Shown here in pieces: positions 10,758 to 61,340 of a stretch of 64,000 nucleotides of DNA. Under the pieces are notes generated by a model. The model searched no databases. It was not told the DNA's origin and was given only the letters and a program-made list of their open reading frames with translations. The first letter of the stretch is position 1. The number at the start of each line of letters is the position of its first letter. Source of the stretch: an uncultured Candidatus Saccharibacteria bacterium (GTDB lineage: Bacteria; Patescibacteriota; Saccharimonadia; Saccharimonadales; Saccharimonadaceae); contig CAVQWH010000001.1 in assembly GCA_963717595.1 (NCBI GenBank), positions 470,266-534,265 of the forward strand. The letters run 5' to 3'. A program made the position numbers and the translations under genes.

Positions 10758-11985
10758 AACCGGCGCCCATTGCTAAAACAAGCGTGCCGCTTTTAAGCTC
10801 GGCTTTAATATGTTGCCACAGTTCATCGTCTAATTCAGAAATCGTTACAGCTTCTCTGTTGGCTAGGTTTTTAGCCAATTCTTCGGGAGTTAAGGTAGGT
10901 AAATTAGGGTCTTCGCGGCTTAGGTAAGTGGGTAGCCAGTAAATCATTTCTGCATCTTGCATGCAGTTAGTGTATTGGTCTTGAATCTCGTGTTGGCGGA
11001 TATTTTGGTGGGGCTGGTAAACAAGTGCTATGTGGTCACTCAATTCACGAGCCATTTGCAGGGTGGCTTTGATTTCAGCCGGGTGATGGCCATAATCGCT
11101 ATATAAATTTTTAGCTAATCTTTCAAACCGCCTGGCGGAGCCTGGAAACTCTTCTAAAATATCGAAAATTCTATGACCATCTACGCTACCTTTGGTCATG
11201 GCAGACACTATTGAAGCTACCAAAAAAGCATTACGGCGATTGTGCTCGCCGGCAATTTTTAGGTTTGATAGATTCTCGTTATCATTAACACCAACAATAT
11301 CGCCGCTAGCTTTTAGTTTGAGCTTTTCTAGCACTGAGTGCCATGTAACTGTAAGACGAGTCTGGTTAATAAAGTCACGAAAAGCCTGGTTATAACTTTC
11401 TTGAGTTTTGTAAGTATCTGGATGATCATAATCAAGGCTTGGAATAATAGAAGTGTCTGGGTGAAAATGGAGCATATTGCGATCATATTCATCGCACTCG
11501 TAAATAAAATATTCACTCGCCGGGTCGTAAGCACCACTAGGGCCAAAGCTTAGTGTAGTCCCCACAGAATAACTTGCCGGTACGCCTAGTTTCTTAAATA
11601 GCCAAATTAGCATAGCGGTAGTGGTAGTTTTGCCGTGAGTGCCAGATATGGCAATTAATTTTAAGTTTTTATCTTTTATAATTTTAGCCAATAACTCATC
11701 GCGTTTAGTTGTGCGGATTTTGTGTTGCCTAGCAAATTGTAACTCTGGATGGTCAGACGGCAAAGCAGCTGTGTGAACTAGCCAATCTATAGGCTGGTTA
11801 GCGTGAATTTGGTCGATATAATTATCCTTTTGGCCAATATGAATTTTAGCGCCTTTCGCCTCCAGCTGCTCAACCATGGGGGACTTAGCTAAATCAGATC
11901 CCGAGACCTTATAACCAGCGTCCAGGGCAATCTCAGCTAGCGGTCCTAAACCTACGCCGCCTATACCAGAAAAATAAATATGCAT
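10702..11985 (-). CDS. murC: UDP-N-acetylmuramate--L-alanine ligase (Mur ligase family; Mpl not excluded)
   Basis: N-terminus HIYFSGIGGVGLGPLAEIALDAGYKVSGSD and P-loop GTHGKTTTTAM. Confidence 0.8.
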   Translation of the reverse strand: MHIYFSGIGGVGLGPLAEIALDAGYKVSGSDLAKSPMVEQLEAKGAKIHIGQKDNYIDQIHANQPIDWLVHTAALPSDHPELQFARQHKIRTTKRDELLAKIIKDKNLKLIAISGTHGKTTTTAMLIWLFKKLGVPASYSVGTTLSFGPSGAYDPASEYFIYECDEYDRNMLHFHPDTSIIPSLDYDHPDTYKTQESYNQAFRDFINQTRLTVTWHSVLEKLKLKASGDIVGVNDNENLSNLKIAGEHNRRNAFLVASIVSAMTKGSVDGHRIFDILEEFPGSARRFERLAKNLYSDYGHHPAEIKATLQMARELSDHIALVYQPHQNIRQHEIQDQYTNCMQDAEMIYWLPTYLSREDPNLPTLTPEELAKNLANREAVTISELDDELWQHIKAELKSGTLVLAMGAGSIDGWLRQHLGAERSQSK

Positions 11986-12064
11986 ACAAATATTGTATCA
12001 GCTTGTCATTATGGGTTTTTATTGCTGTAATGTATAAGAACAGTTTTAAACATAAACATCTACA

Positions 12065-13318
12065 ATGATTCAATCTTTAATACACCGCTTCTTAAGAAGA
12101 ACGCACTTCTGGCGCCATATAGGATTTGCTGAGCTAACCGAACTTTATACGTCGCGTATGCTAAGGATTTTGGCAATGAAAATGATTAGCGGCTTTATTG
12201 CGATTTATTTATACCAGCTTGGATATGATCTGGCGTTTATTGCTTGGTTTTATGTGGTTTATTTTCTGTTTAGAACTTTCGCATCAATTCCCTCGGCATA
12301 TTTTATTGCGCGGGTAGGCCCTAAACACGCTACATTTGTGAGCAATATACTATATATACCTGGAGTAGTAGCTTTAGTACTTACACCTTACTTGGGCTTA
12401 TGGGCGCTAGTGGCTTTTACGGTTTTTAGTGGATTTTCTCTTACGATGTATAACCTAAGTTACTTAGTTGATTTTTCTAAAGTTAAACAGTTCGAGCACG
12501 CCGGTAAGGAAATCGGGGTTATGAATATCGTAGAAAGCATAACCACTGCGCTGAGCCCACTGATAGGTGGTTTGATCGCTTTATGGCTTGGAACCGATGC
12601 TATGATTGTCGCTTCAAGTTTGCTGCTAGCAGTTGCTGCTTGGCCTCTCTTTATAACTGGCGAACCGATGAGAATAAAGCAAAAACTTACTTATAGTCAC
12701 TTTAACCTGAAGGAAACTTGGCGTAACTTCATGGCCGCTATAGCTTACGGGGCAGATACGACTACTACAGGACTTATATGGTACTTATTTATAGCTATAG
12801 CAATTTTAGGAGCGGTTGGCAGTCAAACTGTGTATGTACAGGTTGGTGCACTGGTTTCAGTTTCCGTGATAGCTTCAATAATAATTTCCTACGTGTATGG
12901 AAAAGTCATTGATGGCAACAAAGGCGGTTCACTTCTTAAAATATCCGCAGTAGGCACGGCACTATTGCATATTCTAAGACCTTTTATTACTACTGCCGGA
13001 GGGGCTGCTTCTCTTAATGTAGCTGATCAGGCCACCACTTTGGGCTACACCATGCCCTTGCTTAGAGGTTTTTTCGATTCAGCCGATAACTTACCAGGAT
13101 GTCGCATAGCCTATATGTCTTTGACTCAACTTTTTATCGGTATTGGCCATACGGTTTCTGTGCTTGTATTAGCTGTAGCTGTGACATGTGTCGGCCCGGT
13201 GAATGGTATGAAAGTAAGTTTCTTTATAATGGCACCTATAATGCTGCTGCTTGCGGCTAACGGTTTTGCACTTTATCGTAAGCATAAGTTTTTAGCTCGA
13301 GTAGTGCATGCTGTTTAG
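12065..13318 (+). CDS. MFS-like polytopic membrane transporter
   Basis: 417 aa with about 12 predicted TM segments. It is a paralog of 24317..25478. Confidence 0.6.
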   Translation: MIQSLIHRFLRRTHFWRHIGFAELTELYTSRMLRILAMKMISGFIAIYLYQLGYDLAFIAWFYVVYFLFRTFASIPSAYFIARVGPKHATFVSNILYIPGVVALVLTPYLGLWALVAFTVFSGFSLTMYNLSYLVDFSKVKQFEHAGKEIGVMNIVESITTALSPLIGGLIALWLGTDAMIVASSLLLAVAAWPLFITGEPMRIKQKLTYSHFNLKETWRNFMAAIAYGADTTTTGLIWYLFIAIAILGAVGSQTVYVQVGALVSVSVIASIIISYVYGKVIDGNKGGSLLKISAVGTALLHILRPFITTAGGAASLNVADQATTLGYTMPLLRGFFDSADNLPGCRIAYMSLTQLFIGIGHTVSVLVLAVAVTCVGPVNGMKVSFFIMAPIMLLLAANGFALYRKHKFLARVVHAV

Positions 13319-19454: not shown

Positions 19455-19530
19455 TGGTGGGGGTGGTTGGAATCGAACCAACTACCAAGCGGTTATGAGC
19501 CGCCTGCTCTAACCGATGAGCTACACCCCC
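19455..19530 (-). tRNA. tRNA with CAU anticodon; possibly tRNA-Ile2 (lysidine), otherwise elongator Met
   Basis: 76-nt cloverleaf with encoded CCA. Anticodon arm ggcgg-CTCATAA-ccgct resembles the E. coli ileX arm. Identity cannot be fixed by eye. Confidence 0.8.
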
Positions 19531-21686: not shown

Positions 21687-21764
21687 TGGTTGCGGGGGCA
21701 GGATTCGAACCTGCGACCTTGTGGTTATGAGCCACACGAGCTGACCAGACTGCTCCACCCCGCG
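21687..21764 (-). tRNA. initiator tRNA-fMet (CAU)
   Basis: C1 x A72 acceptor mismatch (cgcgggg / ccccgca), A11:U24 in the D stem, anticodon loop CTCATAA, encoded CCA. Confidence 0.85.
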
Positions 21765-27248: not shown

Positions 27249-27325
27249 GGCAGCGTAGCTCAGTTGGTTAGAGCGTAGGACTCATAAGCCTAAGGTCGCA
27301 GGTTCAATCCCTGCCGCTGCTACCA
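27249..27325 (+). tRNA. tRNA-Met (CAU), probably elongator
   Basis: 77-nt cloverleaf. The 5' part GGCAGCGTAGCTCAGTTGGTTAGAGC resembles E. coli metT. Anticodon loop CTCATAA, encoded CCA, followed by a hairpin and T-run. Confidence 0.8.
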
Positions 27326-36414: not shown

Positions 36415-38184
36415 ATGAAAATTCGTAATTTTTGCATTATTGCCCATATCGACCACGGTAAAAGCACCTTAGCCGACAGATTATTGGAGCTTACAAACAC
36501 GGTAGCTGGCCGTGATATGCAAGCTCAGATATTAGATCAGATGGAGCTAGAGCGAGAAAAGGGTATAACCATTAAGCTTCAGCCAGTTAGGATGCGATAC
36601 AAAGGCTATGATTTTAATCTTATAGATACTCCTGGGCACGTTGACTTCAGTTATGAAGTGTCACGCAGCTTAGCTGCCTGCGAAGGGGCTATTTTAGTGG
36701 TAGATGCCAGTCAGGGTATCCAGGCTCAAACCTTGGCGAATGTTTATCTGGCTTTGGCTGCAGATTTAGCTATTATCCCTGTTATTAATAAGATTGATTT
36801 ACCTGCTGCAGATGTGAAACGGGTTTCAGCAGAAATTACTAACCTTTTAGGATGTAAAGAGTCTGAAATTATAAAAATCAGCGCTAAAACTGGCGAAGGC
36901 GTTCCAGGGGTACTTGAGGCTATAGTTAGTAAAGTTTCTCCTCCAAAGGGAGACGAAAATGCACACCCACGTGCCCTGATTTTTGATAGTTACTATGACG
37001 ATTACAGAGGTGTGATTCTTTATACCCGAGTAGTTGATGGCGTAATAAAAAAAGATGACGTTATAAAAATGCTCGGTACAGAGGCGGAAGGCCTGGCTTT
37101 AGAGGTTGGAGCTCTTTCTCCTCAGATGAAAGCCAGTGAACAACTTAATACTGGTGAAATTGGCTATATTGTTACCAACTTAAAAACTACCCGTGATGCT
37201 AAGGTGGGTGACACCGTTACTACTAAAAAAAACTCTGCCAAGACTCCCCTGCCAGGTTATAAAGATGTAAGCCCTTTTGTTTTTGCTGGCTTTTTCCCTG
37301 TTAGTAACGAAAAGTATCAAGAATTAAAAGAGGCGGTGGAAAAGCTTAGTTTAAGTGATTCAGCTCTTCAGTTTGAGCCTGAAAATTCACCGGTGTTAGG
37401 CTTTGGAGTAAGAATCGGCTTTTTAGGCCTCTTGCATATGGATATTGTACGCGAGCGGCTTGAGAGAGAATACAACTTAGATTTGGTAGTAACTAATCCT
37501 TCTACAGACTATCAAGTAATAATGACCTCTGGGGAAGAAATTGATGTCAAAAGCGCCTCTGATTTGCCAGACGTTAGTAAAATAACTGAAATTAAAGAAC
37601 CTTGGATAAAAGGTGAAATAGTAGTGCCTAAGCCTTATGTTGGCGGGGTAATTCAGTTAATAGTAGCCAAGAGAGGAATGCAAAAGAACCTCAGTTATAT
37701 AGACGAACGAGCCCTCGTTAGCTTCGAAGCACCTCTGGCTAATCTGTTAACAGACTTTTATGATCAGCTAAAATCAATTACTAGCGGCTATGGTTCTTTT
37801 AACTATGAACTTAGTAGCTATAAGGCTGAAGACTTGGTTAGAGTTGATTTCTATGTAGCAGGCGAAATAGTGGATGCTCTATCTGTTATGGTTCACCGTT
37901 CTGAGGCTGAGAGCTTAGGGCGTGAAACTGTTAAAAAGCTTAAAGAAGTTATTCCTAAGCAGAACTTCAAAGTGGCTTTGCAAGCAGCTATAGGGGGTAG
38001 ATTTATTGCTAGAGAAGACCTTAGTGCTTATAGAAAAGATGTCACCACAGGACTTTACGGGGGTGACGTTAGCCGTAAAAAGAAGGTACTAGCCAAGCAG
38101 GCAAAAGGTAAAAAACGCATGAAACGCTTCGGAAAAGTAGATATACCTTCAGAGGCTTTTACAGTTATGCTTAGACGCGACTAA
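36415..38184 (+). CDS. lepA: elongation factor 4
   Basis: IAHIDHGKST, DTPGH, NKID GTPase motifs and a LepA C-terminal domain. Confidence 0.95.
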   Translation: MKIRNFCIIAHIDHGKSTLADRLLELTNTVAGRDMQAQILDQMELEREKGITIKLQPVRMRYKGYDFNLIDTPGHVDFSYEVSRSLAACEGAILVVDASQGIQAQTLANVYLALAADLAIIPVINKIDLPAADVKRVSAEITNLLGCKESEIIKISAKTGEGVPGVLEAIVSKVSPPKGDENAHPRALIFDSYYDDYRGVILYTRVVDGVIKKDDVIKMLGTEAEGLALEVGALSPQMKASEQLNTGEIGYIVTNLKTTRDAKVGDTVTTKKNSAKTPLPGYKDVSPFVFAGFFPVSNEKYQELKEAVEKLSLSDSALQFEPENSPVLGFGVRIGFLGLLHMDIVRERLEREYNLDLVVTNPSTDYQVIMTSGEEIDVKSASDLPDVSKITEIKEPWIKGEIVVPKPYVGGVIQLIVAKRGMQKNLSYIDERALVSFEAPLANLLTDFYDQLKSITSGYGSFNYELSSYKAEDLVRVDFYVAGEIVDALSVMVHRSEAESLGRETVKKLKEVIPKQNFKVALQAAIGGRFIAREDLSAYRKDVTTGLYGGDVSRKKKVLAKQAKGKKRMKRFGKVDIPSEAFTVMLRRD

Positions 38185-38259
38185 TATGCGTAAAGTCTCC
38201 CCTATAAGAGGTATAATTTGTAAAAAGCTTGTGTTTTTGTATTTTTATTGTAGAAACTA

Positions 38260-38288
38260 TTGACAGAACATACTGGTTGTGATAATAT
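38260..38288 (+). promoter_or_regulatory. near-consensus sigma70-like promoter (TTGACA-17-TAATAT)
   Basis: TTGACA at 38260-38265, a 17-nt spacer, then TAATAT at 38283-38288. Confidence 0.5.
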
Positions 38289-38362
38289 TAAGATAATCAA
38301 TCGAGGTTGAGGTGGAACTTTTCCCCGAGCGAGAGGTACGTTAACAACTCGGCTTAGCAAAT

Positions 38363-38391
38363 TTAAGAGGGAAACCTCTTAAACGGTTTTT
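38363..38391 (+). terminator. terminator/attenuator hairpin with GAAA tetraloop and U-tract inside the leader
   Basis: ttaagagg (38363-38370) GAAA cctcttaa (38375-38382), then acgg and ttttt (38387-38391). It is nested inside a gttaacaa/ttgttaac outer stem. Confidence 0.45.
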
Positions 38392-38413
38392 AGTTTGTTA
38401 ACGTAAATCAACG

Positions 38414-38441
38414 CAAACTAGATAGTCATGGGTCTTTAAGG
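38414..38441. repeat. left arm of an inverted repeat bracketing the GC-rich cassette
   Basis: caaactagatagtcat-ggg-tctttaagg. This is the reverse complement of 40134-40162. Confidence 0.8.
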
Positions 38442-38667
38442 CGTATTGAGCTTTATAACTCTGCGAGTGACCCAAGACAACCGACTACATTTATTTAGAT
38501 CAGTTCGTTGCTTAAGATGATTTGAGCAGAGCAGTTTGATGACAGGTGCGTCGCCAAGCTGTTCTGCTCAAAGAGTGAAGTTTACTCTGCGAGTGAACTA
38601 CGGCATCGGATTGATCACCCGGTGCCGAATACTTTATCCGATCACAAACGAAAGGAAGGTGATTACC

Positions 38668-40020
38668 GTGCGCAAGCTCGGAATCCTCATCGTCCTGGCC
38701 GCTGTGGTCGGGATGATTTTCACTGCGTTGCCCGCTACCGCCTCGGCAGCTTGGACCCACCTGGGGGGATATCCCCTCTTTTCGGGCATTCCCAACGCTA
38801 GTCAGGAAGGTCGCGATAAGTTCGTCGAAGACATGCTCTCGCCTTACGGTGTTCTTGCTCAGAAGCGCGCTGGCCTGAATAAGGCCGAAAGGCGTGCTTT
38901 CAAGCAGGCGCTGGTTCATGGCGAATTTAAGAAGTGCACGCTCCACTACGGGGATCACTTCGAAGCCATGTCTTTCGGGACTGAACCCATGCTCGTGGAC
39001 AAGGACGTCACGTTTGAAGACGAACGCTACAAGAGCCACGGCTCCCCGGCGTTTTGCGTCAACTTTCGTGTCGGCCACACTCTCACCCGCGTGAAGGCCC
39101 CGTTTGTATGCGAGAACTTCTCCGTGATGTGGAGAAGGCGTGTCCGTATTTCCCATCCTCATCCGCACGTTCGCAAGAAGGGCTGGGGGAAGCTGGTAAA
39201 GGTCACTAAGGACGCCAACGGTGTTAAGACCGAAACGCCCACGAACACTCTTCGTTGGCATATAAAGGTCAAGGCTCCCAAGTGGCGTAACGCCAAGACC
39301 TGGACCCTGGCCCTCAAGCACGACCCGGAACGCCTCGGTGCTTACCCCTGTGGTACCAAGGTTACCTTGGCAGAGGTTAAGCCCATCGGGCCTGACCTTT
39401 GGACGGTCGAGGGTGCGCGCAAGCAAACCATGACCATCTGCCATCGGGCGAAGGTCGTCTTCTACAACCGACAGAAAGGCGGAACGCCTCCCGAAGAAGA
39501 ACACGGGAGCATCTGCAGCGAAAACGCAGTGAACAACGGTGATGTCTGTGGTGGCACTTGTAACACCACCACGATCATCGTGGGCAGTGGCAACCACGTC
39601 GAAAACAACGTGGAATGCAAGCCGGAAGAACCGCCCGTGTGTACCACGTGTGTGTGCGAAGGCAGCTGCCCGCCGCCCGTCGAACAGTCGATCAGGATTA
39701 CCTCCTGGACCGAAATGAACGACATCCCGGTCGGGAAGTCCAGTGACAACTTCCACGTCGGCGTGTATGCGTCCGATGGGGGAGGAGCTCTGACCATCGA
39801 TCCGGGTAACGGCGGCGTCAACGTCTGCGGGAGTACGCAGCCAGTGATCACGACGTACGTTGTTTCCTTGCAGAAAGGGAGCAATGACGTCTGCGTCAAA
39901 CTGTTTGCCCCCAAAGACACGACGGCGACGTCCATGACGGTGACGGCAACGGCAGTACTCGGGAGCAAGAGTGACGTTAAGTCGCAAACGTTCTCGATCA
40001 GTCACTCCATCCGCCCGTAG
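38668..40020 (+). CDS. GC-rich secreted Cys-rich protein (450 aa from GTG), unknown family
   Basis: GTG 38668 is preceded by aggaaggtga. Signal peptide VRKLGILIVLAAVVGMIFTALPATASA. About 15 Cys, including CTTCVCEGSCPPP. Codons are GC3-rich. The track ORF start at 38536 is probably too far upstream. Confidence 0.65.
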   Translation: MRKLGILIVLAAVVGMIFTALPATASAAWTHLGGYPLFSGIPNASQEGRDKFVEDMLSPYGVLAQKRAGLNKAERRAFKQALVHGEFKKCTLHYGDHFEAMSFGTEPMLVDKDVTFEDERYKSHGSPAFCVNFRVGHTLTRVKAPFVCENFSVMWRRRVRISHPHPHVRKKGWGKLVKVTKDANGVKTETPTNTLRWHIKVKAPKWRNAKTWTLALKHDPERLGAYPCGTKVTLAEVKPIGPDLWTVEGARKQTMTICHRAKVVFYNRQKGGTPPEEEHGSICSENAVNNGDVCGGTCNTTTIIVGSGNHVENNVECKPEEPPVCTTCVCEGSCPPPVEQSIRITSWTEMNDIPVGKSSDNFHVGVYASDGGGALTIDPGNGGVNVCGSTQPVITTYVVSLQKGSNDVCVKLFAPKDTTATSMTVTATAVLGSKSDVKSQTFSISHSIRP

Positions 40021-40047
40021 GTCGGTTGGGCAATAGTAGTCGGTTAG

Positions 40048-40073
40048 GCCAGGGCGCTTTCGAGCGCCCTGGC
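40048..40073 (+). terminator. GC-rich stem-loop after the secreted-protein gene (no U-tract)
   Basis: gccagggcgct (40048-40058) ttcg agcgccctggc (40063-40073). A second 11-bp stem lies at 40079-40089 / 40114-40124. Confidence 0.45.
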
Positions 40074-40133
40074 CGGCCGGCTGCTTCTCTCTCCGCCAAC
40101 TGGTGGATCGATTGAGAAGCAGCCGCAAATCAA

Positions 40134-40162
40134 CCTTAAAGATGTAATGACTATCTAGTTTG
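40134..40162. repeat. right arm of an inverted repeat bracketing the GC-rich cassette
   Basis: ccttaaaga-tgta-atgactatctagtttg. Confidence 0.8.
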
Positions 40163-40198
40163 TAATTTATTCAAGCATATTAGTATGAAAGGAGATTA

Positions 40199-40924
40199 AT
40201 GATGAAACGTATTTTATCATTAGCTGCTGTAGTAACAAGTATTTTTACTGTTGCTGTAGGCGTGTTGGGTGTTATTTCTAACCCCGTATTCGCTGCGAGC
40301 CCTGGTCAATTGGCTGGTGGCGATAACTATTTAGTTAAGAATTTGACTCAAGGCGGTGCATACGCTAATAACGTAAGCGCTACCTGTAAAGACGAAGTGC
40401 AATTTAGTATGCAATTAAGTAATACTGAGTATGGCGCTTTAAATAATGTAACCTTTAAGGCTACATTACCAAGTGGCGGTGGTACAAGTACTGCTACTGC
40501 AACCACTAGCTTAGGTGGTACGACTGGTACGTCTGATACTGCTAGCGTAACACTTGGCGCAAACCAAACTATCAGCTATGAAGCTGGTTCAACAGTACTT
40601 TACGATGGCAATGGCGGTGTTATCCAAACACTCGGTGACGGTGTGACAAATGGTGGTGTGAACATTGGAACAATCGATGGTTCAACAACTGAATTTGTTA
40701 ACTTTAAAGCAAAAGTTAACTGCGAAACTCCTCCAGTAACCCCTCCTGTTACGCCTCCGACCCCTAAGACACCTACCCAACCTACACCAAGCACACCAGC
40801 TAGCTTGCCAGCTACTGGTCCTGAAGCTCTTGCGAGCGGTGTTATGGGTTCCGGTGCACTAGGTTATGGTGTACGCCGCTGGCTCGTCAGCCGTCGTGCT
40901 TTGCGCGATGCGCTGAAACGCTAA
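40199..40924 (+). CDS. LPXTG-type cell-surface protein
   Basis: Signal peptide, TPPVTPPVTPPTPKTPTQPTP linker, LPATG followed by a hydrophobic stretch and a basic tail. Confidence 0.75.
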   Translation: MMKRILSLAAVVTSIFTVAVGVLGVISNPVFAASPGQLAGGDNYLVKNLTQGGAYANNVSATCKDEVQFSMQLSNTEYGALNNVTFKATLPSGGGTSTATATTSLGGTTGTSDTASVTLGANQTISYEAGSTVLYDGNGGVIQTLGDGVTNGGVNIGTIDGSTTEFVNFKAKVNCETPPVTPPVTPPTPKTPTQPTPSTPASLPATGPEALASGVMGSGALGYGVRRWLVSRRALRDALKR

Positions 40925-41273: not shown

Positions 41274-42511
41274 GTGGGAACTAATTTGAGTTTTTATAAA
41301 AAGACAATTGCTGATTTACCTCTGGACAGTCAAGTAGTTTTAGTACGTGCTGACTACAATGTACCACTTGATGATGAAACAGGTAAGATTGCTAACGATT
41401 ATAGAATTATCCAAAGCCTGCCTACCATAAGGCGTTTGCTGGATAGACACTGTACAGTAGTAATTTGTAGCCATCTGGCCGCCCTAAAGGCAAAAAAGTC
41501 CCTGAATTGACTTTAGAGCCAATTGCTAAACGCCTACAAGAACTATTGAATAAAGATGTGAAGTTTGTGCCTGCAGCTACTGGCGATCAAGTTAGCCAAA
41601 CAGTTAAAAACACCAGTAAGGGATCGGTAATTTTACTGGAAAACCTGCGTTTTTATCCGGGTGAAGAAGCCAATGATGAGAAGTTTGCTAAAGCACTAGC
41701 TAAGAGCAGTCGTGCCCGTTATTTTGTCCAAGATGGCTTTGGTGTAGTGCATAGGAAGCATGCTAGCACTAGCGCCATCACACAGTTCTTGCCAAGCGTA
41801 GCAGGCCTCTTGATAGTAAAGGAATACAATCACATTTTAGGAGCCATACATAATCCTAAAAGACCTCTGGTTACAATAATCGGCGGCGCAAAAATCCATG
41901 ATAAGCTGCCGCTTATAAAGAGATTCATTGATTTTGCCGACGAAATAATAATCGGCGGCGCTGTAGCTAATTCGTTTTTGGCTTTTAAAGGCTATAAAAT
42001 AGGCAAAAGTGATGTAGACAGAAGTTTAGACGATGTGATTGCCAATATTTATAAATTAGTCGAGAAAAAGGTCGGCGCTCAAAATGTTGATGACTTTCTT
42101 CTTTTGCCAAGTGACGTGGCAGTGTCTTTTAGTAAAGATCATACCGCTGAAAGGGATGAAATAAAGCTGGACGAAATCAAGCCGGATGAATTTATTTTAG
42201 ATATGGGGCCTGAATCTATTGAATACACTACACAGAGAATCGAACAGGCAAAAACAGTAATCTGGAACGGCACACTTGGGCTTGCTGAGATTCCACAATT
42301 TGCTTACGGTTCCGCGCGGGTAGCTTTGAGTTTAGCAGAAAATTCCAACGTAACCTCAGTAATAGGCGGCGGTGACACGGCAGAATTTGTGCTGGACTGG
42401 GATGCAAAGAACGGCGGCAGCTTTACTCATGTATCGACTGGCGGGGGAGCTAGTTTAGAGTTAATGGCAGGCGAAAAGTTGCCAGGAGTTGAGGCGCTTA
42501 TAAATGCGTAG
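41274..42511 (+). CDS. pgk: phosphoglycerate kinase, split by a -1 frameshift
   Basis: ORFs 41274..41510 and 41507..42511. Adding one G at 41476-41478 restores SHLGRPKGKKVPELTLEPIAKRL. Confidence 0.85.
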
Positions 42512-61281: not shown

Positions 61282-61340
61282 ACCCCTATTTTATCAAAGA
61301 TAGTTGGGTGTGTCAAGTATATAATTGCCGATGCTATATA

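Follow-up and report, generated by a model that had tools for sequence, protein, structure and literature searches.

Paired untranslated regions form a conserved RNA frame around interchangeable secreted-protein genes in Saccharibacteria

In an uncultured Candidatus Saccharibacteria bacterium (assembly GCA_963717595.1, contig CAVQWH010000001.1), the stretch of 64,000 nt analysed here, hereafter the window, carries an open reading frame (ORF) for a secreted protein enclosed between the two arms of an inverted repeat, in a neighbourhood comprising the genes for SAICAR synthetase, a PP-loop ATPase, FtsH, MurJ, LepA, PGK, TIM, UvrD, a G5/transglycosylase protein and MetRS. The left arm (38414-38441) reads CAAACTAGATAGTCAT-GGG-TCTTTAAGG and the right arm (40134-40162) CCTTAAAGA-TGTA-ATGACTATCTAGTTTG, with 1717 nt separating the 16-mer arms according to a repeat search; the complementarity is exact (16/16 and 9/9 matches, spacers of 3 and 4 nt), as a first-pass annotation made from the letters of the sequence had claimed. 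Pairing between the two sides of the enclosed gene exists, is kept by selection on the sense RNA and characterises an entire class of loci, and the arms are very probably this RNA pairing at work instead of a DNA repeat. The paired elements are referred to below as the frame, its helices as P1 to P4, the untranslated regions as UTRs and the coding sequence as CDS. In window coordinates, the transcription unit is laid out as follows.

38260..38288, + strand: promoter TTGACA-17-TAATAT with TG preceding the -10 box, recognised by sequence
38296..38412, + strand: structured leader domain with conserved GAGGUGG and UUAACAAC motifs (fold z-score, conservation)
38362-38383, + strand: terminator-like hairpin and U run of the leader, enclosed by the pairing UUAACAAC/GUUUGUUAAC
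38413..38429, + strand: 5' strand of P1 (GCAAACUAGAUAGUCAU), that is the left repeat arm, pairing with 40147-40163 over 17 bp
38430..38432, + strand: 5' side of the internal loop, GGG, opposite 40143-40146 (UGUA)
38433..38441, + strand: 5' strand of P2 (UCUUUAAGG), pairing with 40134-40142 over 9 bp at a probability of ~1.0
38442..38465, + strand: local hairpin P3, NNNN-UU-GAG...CUC-NNNN (covariation)
38466..38478, + strand: junction with conserved ACCCAAGAC (alignments)
38479..38488, + strand: 5' strand (AACCGACUAC) of the second long-range helix, P4, by which the CDS is closed off; pairs with 40036-40045
38489..38667, + strand: remaining 5' UTR, with a hairpin (38521-38543/38550-38572) and the Shine-Dalgarno sequence GGAAGGUGA at 38654-38662
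38668..40020, + strand: CDS of 450 aa, comprising signal peptide, N domain, middle domain, Cys-rich linker and C-terminal immunoglobulin (Ig)-like beta-sandwich
40036..40045, + strand: 3' strand of P4 (GUAGUCGGUU), 16 nt past the stop codon
40047..40125, + strand: two 3' UTR hairpins, 40047-40074 and 40078-40089/40114-40125
40134..40142, + strand: 3' strand of P2 (CCUUAAAGA)
40147..40163, + strand: 3' strand of P1 (AUGACUAUCUAGUUUGU), that is the right repeat arm
40199..40924, + strand: partner gene for a 241-aa sortase substrate (LPATG, hydrophobic segment, basic tail), starting 36 nt past P1
40989..41014, + strand: intrinsic terminator-like hairpin and T run, end of the two-gene unit

What the first-pass annotation had described around the arms holds in every particular that could be read from the letters. 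The 8-mer AAATCAAC stands directly 5' of each arm (38405-38412 and 40127-40134); since its right-hand copy is internal to the element, it is not a target-site duplication, and none was found between the sequences outside the left arm (...AATCAAC) and outside the right arm (AATTTATT...). The 16-mer of the arms occurs at just these two sites in the 64 kb with up to 2 mismatches allowed (0/100 shuffles gave at least 2 matches), and the pairing gains one outer pair, G38413·T40163, as part of P1. Base composition does switch sharply, G+C rising from 0.36-0.43 before the arms to 0.54-0.60 between them and falling back to 0.37 after them, while the G+C content at third codon positions (GC3) of the enclosed ORF reaches 0.70, a value unique among the window ORFs of at least 150 aa (others mostly 0.30-0.40, range 0.23-0.54). 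This ORF starts with GTG, has GGAAGGTGA 6 nt upstream and encodes 15 Cys as well as a hydrophobic N-terminus ending in ATASA. Both G+C-rich stem-loops of the 3' UTR are present, that at 40047-40074 being a 12-bp stem without a U run, and at other loci a similarly shaped hairpin adjoins the right arm. The promoter lies outside the left arm, and no recombinase gene was found from ~8 kb upstream to 11 kb downstream of the element, be it a transposase, integrase or invertase. The 5' UTR further holds a direct repeat of 27 nt with 78% identity, ACTCTGCGAGTGA..., at 38458-38484 and 38584-38610. Its first copy is the 3' half of P3 together with the junction; the second, 126 nt downstream, could compete for the 5' strand of P3 in an alternative fold.

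Regarding its distribution, the frame brackets a single secreted-protein ORF in ~44 distinct Saccharibacteria genome and metagenome loci. The further arm copies in related genomes for which the first-pass annotation had proposed to look were indeed found, the left-arm 20-mer being present in 25 stretches of species-representative genomes (22 titled Saccharibacteria, Saccharimonadales or Saccharimonadia, 2 Patescibacteria and 1 'uncultured bacterium') and in 29 metagenome stretches. Where at least 2 kb of downstream DNA was available, an exact right arm lies 1.3-1.9 kb from the left arm in 42 of 48 cases, and in four of the six others the right arm is degenerate, its differences being C-to-T changes that yield G·U pairs. 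Four loci found through protein homology only (L069-L072) carry the arms with 0-1 mismatch, so the association is not produced by the motif search. The same repeat, with the left arm AGATAGTCATGGGTCTTTAAG, is found at two homologue loci lying on contigs of 54% G+C, a few genes upstream of pgk-tpiA, and the closest relative of the window, L018 (OY970356.1), has a frame at the equivalent position. One to three copies were counted per contig examined, always within the module of promoter, leader, frame and LPxTG gene. In L002, two neighbouring genes are each bracketed, their frames standing back to back, 4 nt apart. L002 also contains the shortest frame (11204-12152, 949 nt), which encloses a His-rich protein of 209-241 aa and is followed by pyruvate kinase instead of an LPxTG gene, so that the frame can occur without its usual partner. 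In viral contigs, the eight 16-mer matches do not extend into the element and are attributable to chance. No Rfam 15 family matched the element, the window and 14 related loci giving tRNAs only, and with E-values up to 10 over 38150-40250 there were three chance-level matches, all on the minus strand. No description of the element was found in the literature searched (Saccharibacteria combined with UTR, S-layer, sortase or structured RNA).

The RNA nature of the pairing is supported by folding, covariation and strand asymmetry. The minimum-energy fold of the full-length 1766-nt window RNA contains P1, P2, P3 and P4; pair probabilities range from 0.63 to 1.0 in P1 (at least 0.94 for 16 of its 17 pairs) and from 0.81 to 1.0 in P4, the pairs of the long-range helices lying mostly at 0.94-1.0 with 0.63 and 0.81 as the two lowest values. 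Single-sequence folds of the joined UTRs of seven diverged loci give one common architecture, and RNAalifold, applied to 28 distinct joined UTRs, predicts P1, P3 and P4. In this alignment 96.0% of cells pair, vs. 29-43% when the partners are slid, and changes on both sides are seen in 16 of 31 pairs, levels that none of 500 shuffles attained in any of the five measures. Since the search patterns prescribed the left 20-mer and the right 9-mer, nine never-varying P1 pairs are uninformative in these figures. P3 shows changes on both sides in all of its 8 pairs. The outer 7 bp of P1 covary, G·U wobbles included, with variant pairs such as GCGAACUAG/CUAGUUCGC, GCAAGCUAG/CUAGCUUGC and AAAUUAG/CUAAUUU. 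The partner of P2 reads CUUGAAG in other loci, which yields U·G wobbles, and the UGUA side of the internal loop varies among loci in both sequence and length (3-5 nt). P2 was missed by RNAalifold because MAFFT misaligns the variable internal loop; its support comes from the single-sequence folds and from the energy comparison of sense and antisense strands. A P4-equivalent helix with an ungapped helix score of at least 21 is present in 40 of 44 cassettes and is built from at least six sequence solutions (CCGACUAC/GUAGUCGG, CAACUACUGC/GCAGUAGUUG, CCAAUUACUAC/GUAGUAAUUGG, CAUCAUUUACUA/UAGUAAAUGAUG, CCAUCAAUUAC/GUAAUUGAUGG and UCGACUAAU/AUUAGUCGA), with a score of 26.4 against the own 3' UTR vs. 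20.4 against non-cognate 3' UTRs.

The strand on which selection acts can be read from the pairs that are not Watson-Crick. In P1 these amount, in a tally from the per-column table, to ~40 G·U vs. ~6 A·C on the sense strand, and the sense duplex is stabler than the antisense one in 45 of 49 cassettes; P4 is almost wholly Watson-Crick and thus gives no information in such an antisense control. This asymmetry, which would be absent from a site recognised on double-stranded DNA, is left unexplained by a DNA model, and the covariation of P3 and P4 has no use in a DNA-site model and counts against it. A promoter within P1, with GATAGT as -10 box, was considered and dropped, as it would remove the 5' strand of P1 from the RNA, contrary to the covariation.

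The frame is one part of a transcription unit of conserved order, namely a near-consensus promoter, a structured leader, the frame with its variable gene, a sortase-anchored gene and a terminator. A perfect TTGACA box is present in 37 of the 38 cassettes having more than ~200 nt of upstream DNA, 65-229 nt before P1, and its spacing to a -10 box of TAnnnT type is 16-18 nt (17 in 35 of the 37). Within the 64 kb there are only two TTGACA-17-TAnnAT sites, the other being at 61316 on the minus strand. This promoter context suggests high expression. The leader (65-229 nt among cassettes; fold z-score of -4.0 in the window) is conserved across classes as CAUCCUC...GAGGUG-N-UUAACAAU with variable inserted hairpins, and matches no Rfam family. 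Within the window leader, positions 38385-38391 mimic the right arm (UAGUUUG or GUUUGCG) and are complementary to the outer 5' strand of P1 at 38414-38420; in class A loci, e.g. L010 and L017, a right-arm mimic stands ~30 nt upstream of P1.

Downstream, the LPXTG gene that the first-pass annotation had named as a flanking gene turns out to be no unrelated neighbour but the conserved partner of the module: among the 38 cassettes with enough downstream DNA, 34 have a sortase-substrate gene (225-335 aa; LPxTG or LVNTG, hydrophobic segment, basic tail) 3-75 nt past the right arm. Such a gap is too short for a separate promoter, so the partner gene is probably co-transcribed with the frame gene, and from the positions of promoter, ORF and terminator we infer that both arms are carried by one transcript. 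For the window LPxTG protein, Pfam gives just a sub-threshold DUF11 match. In one lineage, LVNTG replaces LPxTG as the motif ahead of the partner protein's hydrophobic segment and basic tail, a variant sorting signal encountered in L001, L002, L005, L007, L013, L016, L019, L020, L058, L064, L069, L071 and L072. As a possible mark of a conserved genomic neighbourhood, 11 of 14 loci scanned have a tRNA gene (58.5-63.5 bits with the Rfam tRNA model) within ~0.3-2.4 kb of the module, namely L001 (12555-12626), L002 (9581-9652), L013, L072, L008, L022, L060, L029, L042, L016 and L069.

The enclosed proteins are far more variable than the frame that holds their genes. As the first-pass annotation had stated, the window protein defies family assignment: Pfam gives none, the AlphaFold model has a mean predicted local distance difference test (pLDDT) score of 57 and is confident only in the 110 C-terminal residues, which form the Ig-like beta-sandwich, and Foldseek against the PDB retrieves generic Ig-like or PapD-like beta-sandwiches that point to no specific function. 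No identical sequence is on record, and the 12 relatives detected each match about one third of its length. Among the 44 bracketed ORFs (300-550 aa), most have a signal-peptide-like N-terminus, and those without look like miscalled starts. By sequence, these 44 proteins form a mosaic network, in which five carry the N domain of the window protein, three the middle domain and eight the C-terminal one.

Comparison of close relatives indicates how this variability arises. Identity between the window and L018 is 93% over promoter and leader, 86% over the 5' UTR, 100% over the first 54 nt of the CDS and 92% over the 3' UTR, vs. 78-81% for housekeeping genes (lepA 79%), while the mature CDS is unalignable, as is the N-terminal half of the LPxTG gene. 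In the same way, L055 matches L046 at 98% identity throughout promoter, leader and 5' UTR and again from mid-CDS on, but from 808 to 1681 (start codon to about codon 290) it cannot be aligned with L046 and is 88% like L054. These patterns imply that the coding body was replaced by recombination within a conserved frame, which, being better conserved than housekeeping genes, serves as the flanking homology for exchange between strains. The breakpoints lie away from the arms, namely at the start codon or the signal peptide, in mid-CDS and just past the stop codon, and the arms are thus not the ends of the mobile unit. Of note, the partner gene has a second hypervariable segment directly past the conserved 3' UTR: its N-terminal, surface-exposed half (40199-40567) is unalignable with the L018 counterpart, and its C-terminal half is 79% identical. 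The bracketed CDS of L018 (3314-4566) is split into two overlapping ORFs of 251 and 217 aa, owing either to a frameshift in this allele or to misassembly of the metagenome-assembled genome.

The composition of the enclosed genes bears on their origin. Across L001-L072, GC3 of the bracketed CDS ranges from 0.54 to 0.94 with a mean of 0.75, whatever the G+C of the host, and exceeds that of the partner gene (mean 0.42) in 36 of 38 comparisons and that of the other ORFs (mean 0.53) in 30 of 37; the excess is greatest in low-G+C hosts and nil in hosts of 54% G+C. The LPxTG-type gene lies below the genome background, so the anomaly is confined to the sequence enclosed by the frame. A high G+C or GC3 common to nearly all bracketed genes cannot serve as a donor signature. 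The proposal of a recently acquired foreign gene therefore stands in part: the mature CDS has no counterpart in the nearest relative and the domains are mosaic, but the high GC3 on which it also drew is class-wide. Uptake from high-G+C actinobacterial hosts was also considered; the loci examined for five of the 12 homologues lie on contigs that share their module and synteny with genomes titled Saccharibacteria.

From these elements, a mechanism may be proposed in which the frame, through UTR pairing, directs the processing by an enzyme of the ribonuclease (RNase) III type and the stabilisation of the mRNA for the variable secreted protein, presumably a hypervariable component of the surface module made at a high level, a reading to which a probability of about 55% is given. 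Complementary segments of the 5' and 3' UTRs able to pair are indeed present, by covariation as by folding, and a long-range duplex of about two turns is conserved among the homologous operons at ~44 loci, as in a processing stalk. The first-pass annotation had listed a long-range 5'/3' UTR pairing as the third of its options, and that option fits both covariation and folds, although as one part of a larger RNA architecture. The 5' UTR and 3' UTR of one mRNA would pair via P1 (17 bp) and P2 (9 bp), P4, P3 and the 3' UTR hairpins would complete a multi-way junction, and the coding sequence of 1.35 kb would leave this junction as a closed loop. As the P1-loop-P2 shape, i.e. a duplex of ~26 bp with an internal loop, is that of classical RNase III substrates (rRNA stalks, icaR), a double-strand-specific enzyme of this type is the candidate for its cleavage. 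The cut would remove the leader and part the upstream cistron from the LPxTG cistron, leaving a mature mRNA with base-paired, exonuclease-resistant ends, from which the variable secreted protein could be produced in large excess; the G+C-rich coding loop may also fold on itself and expose few A/U-rich nuclease sites. The back-to-back frames of L002 fit a precursor cut into units. Whether processing or stabilisation is the main purpose of the pairing is a narrower matter, and the odds for it are put slightly short of even. More tentatively still, the whole can be conceived as a dedicated, portable 'expression frame' made up of consensus promoter, structured leader and multi-helix UTR clasp. It would combine processing and protection of the message for a major surface-module protein at the RNA level with the swapping of GC3-rich bodies at the DNA level, where its extreme conservation would allow homologous recombination in naturally competent cells; if true, surface variation in this episymbiont would rest on a gene-cassette system that is defined by RNA and needs no recombinase.

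Several considerations weigh against the processing and stabilisation reading. The RNA ends, the cleavage and the co-transcription of the LPxTG gene are deduced from the sequence, and the high GC3 of the enclosed CDS is left unexplained. The search pattern dictated the inner 10 bp of P1 as well as the left 20-mer, so their invariance carries little weight, and the R2 positions were picked by best pairing, a bias for which the comparison of cognate with non-cognate 3' UTRs controls only partly. Besides, the conservation of P1 and P2 is stricter than pairing needs, which points to a putative sequence-specific partner, and so elaborate a leader (65-229 nt) could be a sensor, making regulation rather than stabilisation the main role.

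This last consideration leads to the strongest of the rival explanations, which is nonetheless unlikely, namely a regulatory switch whose leader senses a ligand, a protein, temperature or the ribosome and frees or blocks the 5' strand of P1, resulting in a riboswitch-like control of decay or translation. The conserved and structured leader, the terminator-like hairpin with a U run found in many leaders, and the right-arm mimic, likewise found in many of them and able to pair with outer P1, all speak in its favour. The window mimic is however predicted to pair with the leader's own UUAACAAC and not with P1, the Shine-Dalgarno sequence is separated from the arms by more than 210 nt and lies outside the long-range helices, no riboswitch family of Rfam is matched, and inserted hairpins make the length of the leader vary from 65 to 229 nt. 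A less probable alternative sees the primary role of the arms in DNA homology, as flanks for the RecA-dependent replacement of the coding body by transformed DNA, with RNA pairing incidental. In its favour, genomes sharing 80-98% identity in the flanks have different coding bodies, the proteins of the cassettes are mosaics of domains and cassette GC3 does not depend on host G+C; yet homology anchors have no need of arms that are inverted complements, nor of three covarying helices or a sense-strand G·U bias, the breakpoints are not at the arms, and the N-terminal part of the LPxTG protein is equally variable without any such frame.

Rather improbable, too, is a dedicated sequence-specific protein binding the arms, either on DNA, as a pair of operators that would loop the gene, or on the paired RNA. 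The core AGAUAGUCAU...GGGUCUUUAAG hardly varies, also in loci found without the motif (the nine arms found via proteins have 0-1 mismatch despite the absence of any motif search), and this exceeds the needs of pairing, but a DNA operator leaves the covariation of P3 and P4 and the G·U asymmetry unexplained, and no candidate regulator gene adjoins the module; an RNA-binding partner would be compatible with, and add to, the processing and stabilisation reading. The least probable are the first two options of the first-pass annotation, in which the arms are the terminal inverted repeats of a non-autonomous mobile cassette or the crossover sites of a distant invertase. The inverted-repeat form and the promoter outside it invite such an interpretation. 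Neither option survives the comparison of loci, given the lack of a target-site duplication, the low copy number in one constant module, the breakpoints away from the arms, the absence of any inversion relative to promoter or partner gene among ~44 assembled cassettes, the unequal arm spacers (3 vs. 3-5 nt), the lack of a recombinase nearby, the absence of the motif from viral contigs and the second and third covarying helices, for which an invertible segment has no role.

More specific classes of DNA element were rejected on similar grounds. A miniature inverted-repeat transposable element or a cassette derived from an insertion sequence would not go with the missing duplication, the absence of many copies in unrelated contexts and the presence of the L018 frame at the same place; an inverton does not go with a single orientation in ~44 assembled cassettes, the lack of an adjacent invertase and arms differing in spacer and by substitutions of G·U type. 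In integrons, attC is a single 3' site with R''/R' cores (RYYYAAC / GTTRRRY), the cassette is promoterless and intI lies nearby. An integron gene cassette was dismissed as the repeat halves are split across the two ends of the gene, each unit has its own consensus promoter and there is no integrase. The dif sites recognised by Xer recombinases are 28 bp long, with two 11-bp arms around a fixed 6-bp centre, and occur as inverted pairs. A Xer-dependent dif module was excluded with blocks of 16-17 and 8-9 nt and a centre of 3 nt on the left vs. 3-5 nt on the right.

Elsewhere in the window, phosphoglycerate kinase is split into two overlapping ORFs, 41274-41510 (78 aa) and 41507-42511 (334 aa), the second of which matches positions 66-379 of the PGK profile, a frameshift due either to sequencing error or to a real disruption. 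Three tRNA-Met genes with CAT anticodon lie within 8 kb, at 19455-19530 (-), 21687-21764 (-) and 27249-27325 (+), presumably of the initiator, elongator and tRNA-Ile2 precursor types.

Bacterial 5'/3' UTR pairing is known from a few single-species cases, and what is new here is a conserved and strongly covarying RNA family that extends over many species of an uncultivated-majority lineage and encloses an exchangeable ORF. It provides a concrete RNA element for the study of mRNA processing and stability in the Patescibacteria, whose RNA biology is almost unknown, as well as a marker for a conserved two-gene surface module, hypervariable secreted plus sortase-anchored, that makes a good candidate for host or phage interaction. 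The genetics of Saccharibacteria, now emerging, may also gain from it a high-expression cassette that is ready for use. For genome annotation, it cautions that an abrupt G+C shift within inverted repeats is not always mobile DNA.

Among known systems, the hbs mRNA of B. subtilis, where 5'/3' UTR pairing controls RNase action and stability (Braun, Durand & Condon 2017, PMC5737220), comes close in that the long-range pairing lies in one highly expressed mRNA and governs the access of ribonuclease. The hbs pairing is a single 14-bp helix in a short mRNA of one species and overlaps an RNase Y site (PMC5737220), unlike the frame, which has two long-range helices and a junction that covary across many species around unrelated CDSs. 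In S. aureus, 3'UTR-5'UTR pairing of icaR creates an RNase III substrate and covers the Shine-Dalgarno sequence, repressing translation (Ruiz de los Mozos et al. 2013, PMC3868564). The frame, by contrast, leaves the Shine-Dalgarno sequence unpaired, more than 210 nt away, and its promoter context suggests high expression. In rRNA precursors, complementary sequences ~1.5 kb or more apart form stalks that loop out the mature 16S or 23S, which are released from the polycistronic precursor by an RNase III cut; the frame likewise closes an RNA loop with a long duplex, whereas the enclosed RNA is a translated mRNA and its cleavage is putative. Messages of the hok type, in which pairing of the 5' and 3' ends gives a compact and stable mRNA, are short toxin messages kept translationally inert, unlike the frame mRNA of 1.7 kb, which involves neither toxin nor antisense RNA. 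HEARO, the IscB-associated RNA, also has structured halves on either side of an ORF, but is tied to one nuclease family and acts as a guide RNA, whereas the frame encloses diverse secreted proteins and has no Rfam match. As for the pdif modules of Acinetobacter, integron cassettes and invertons, these DNA cassettes with inverted sites depend on Xer, IntI or invertases and on a fixed site geometry; like the frame, they hold one gene within inverted repeats and different genes in the same bracket. The frame is set apart by its variable spacer, its covarying extra helices and its sense G·U bias, and shows no recombinase or inverted copy. Of the RNA systems compared (hbs, icaR, rRNA stalks, hok and HEARO), none combines several helices and a lineage-wide distribution with interchangeable secreted-protein genes as its enclosed content.

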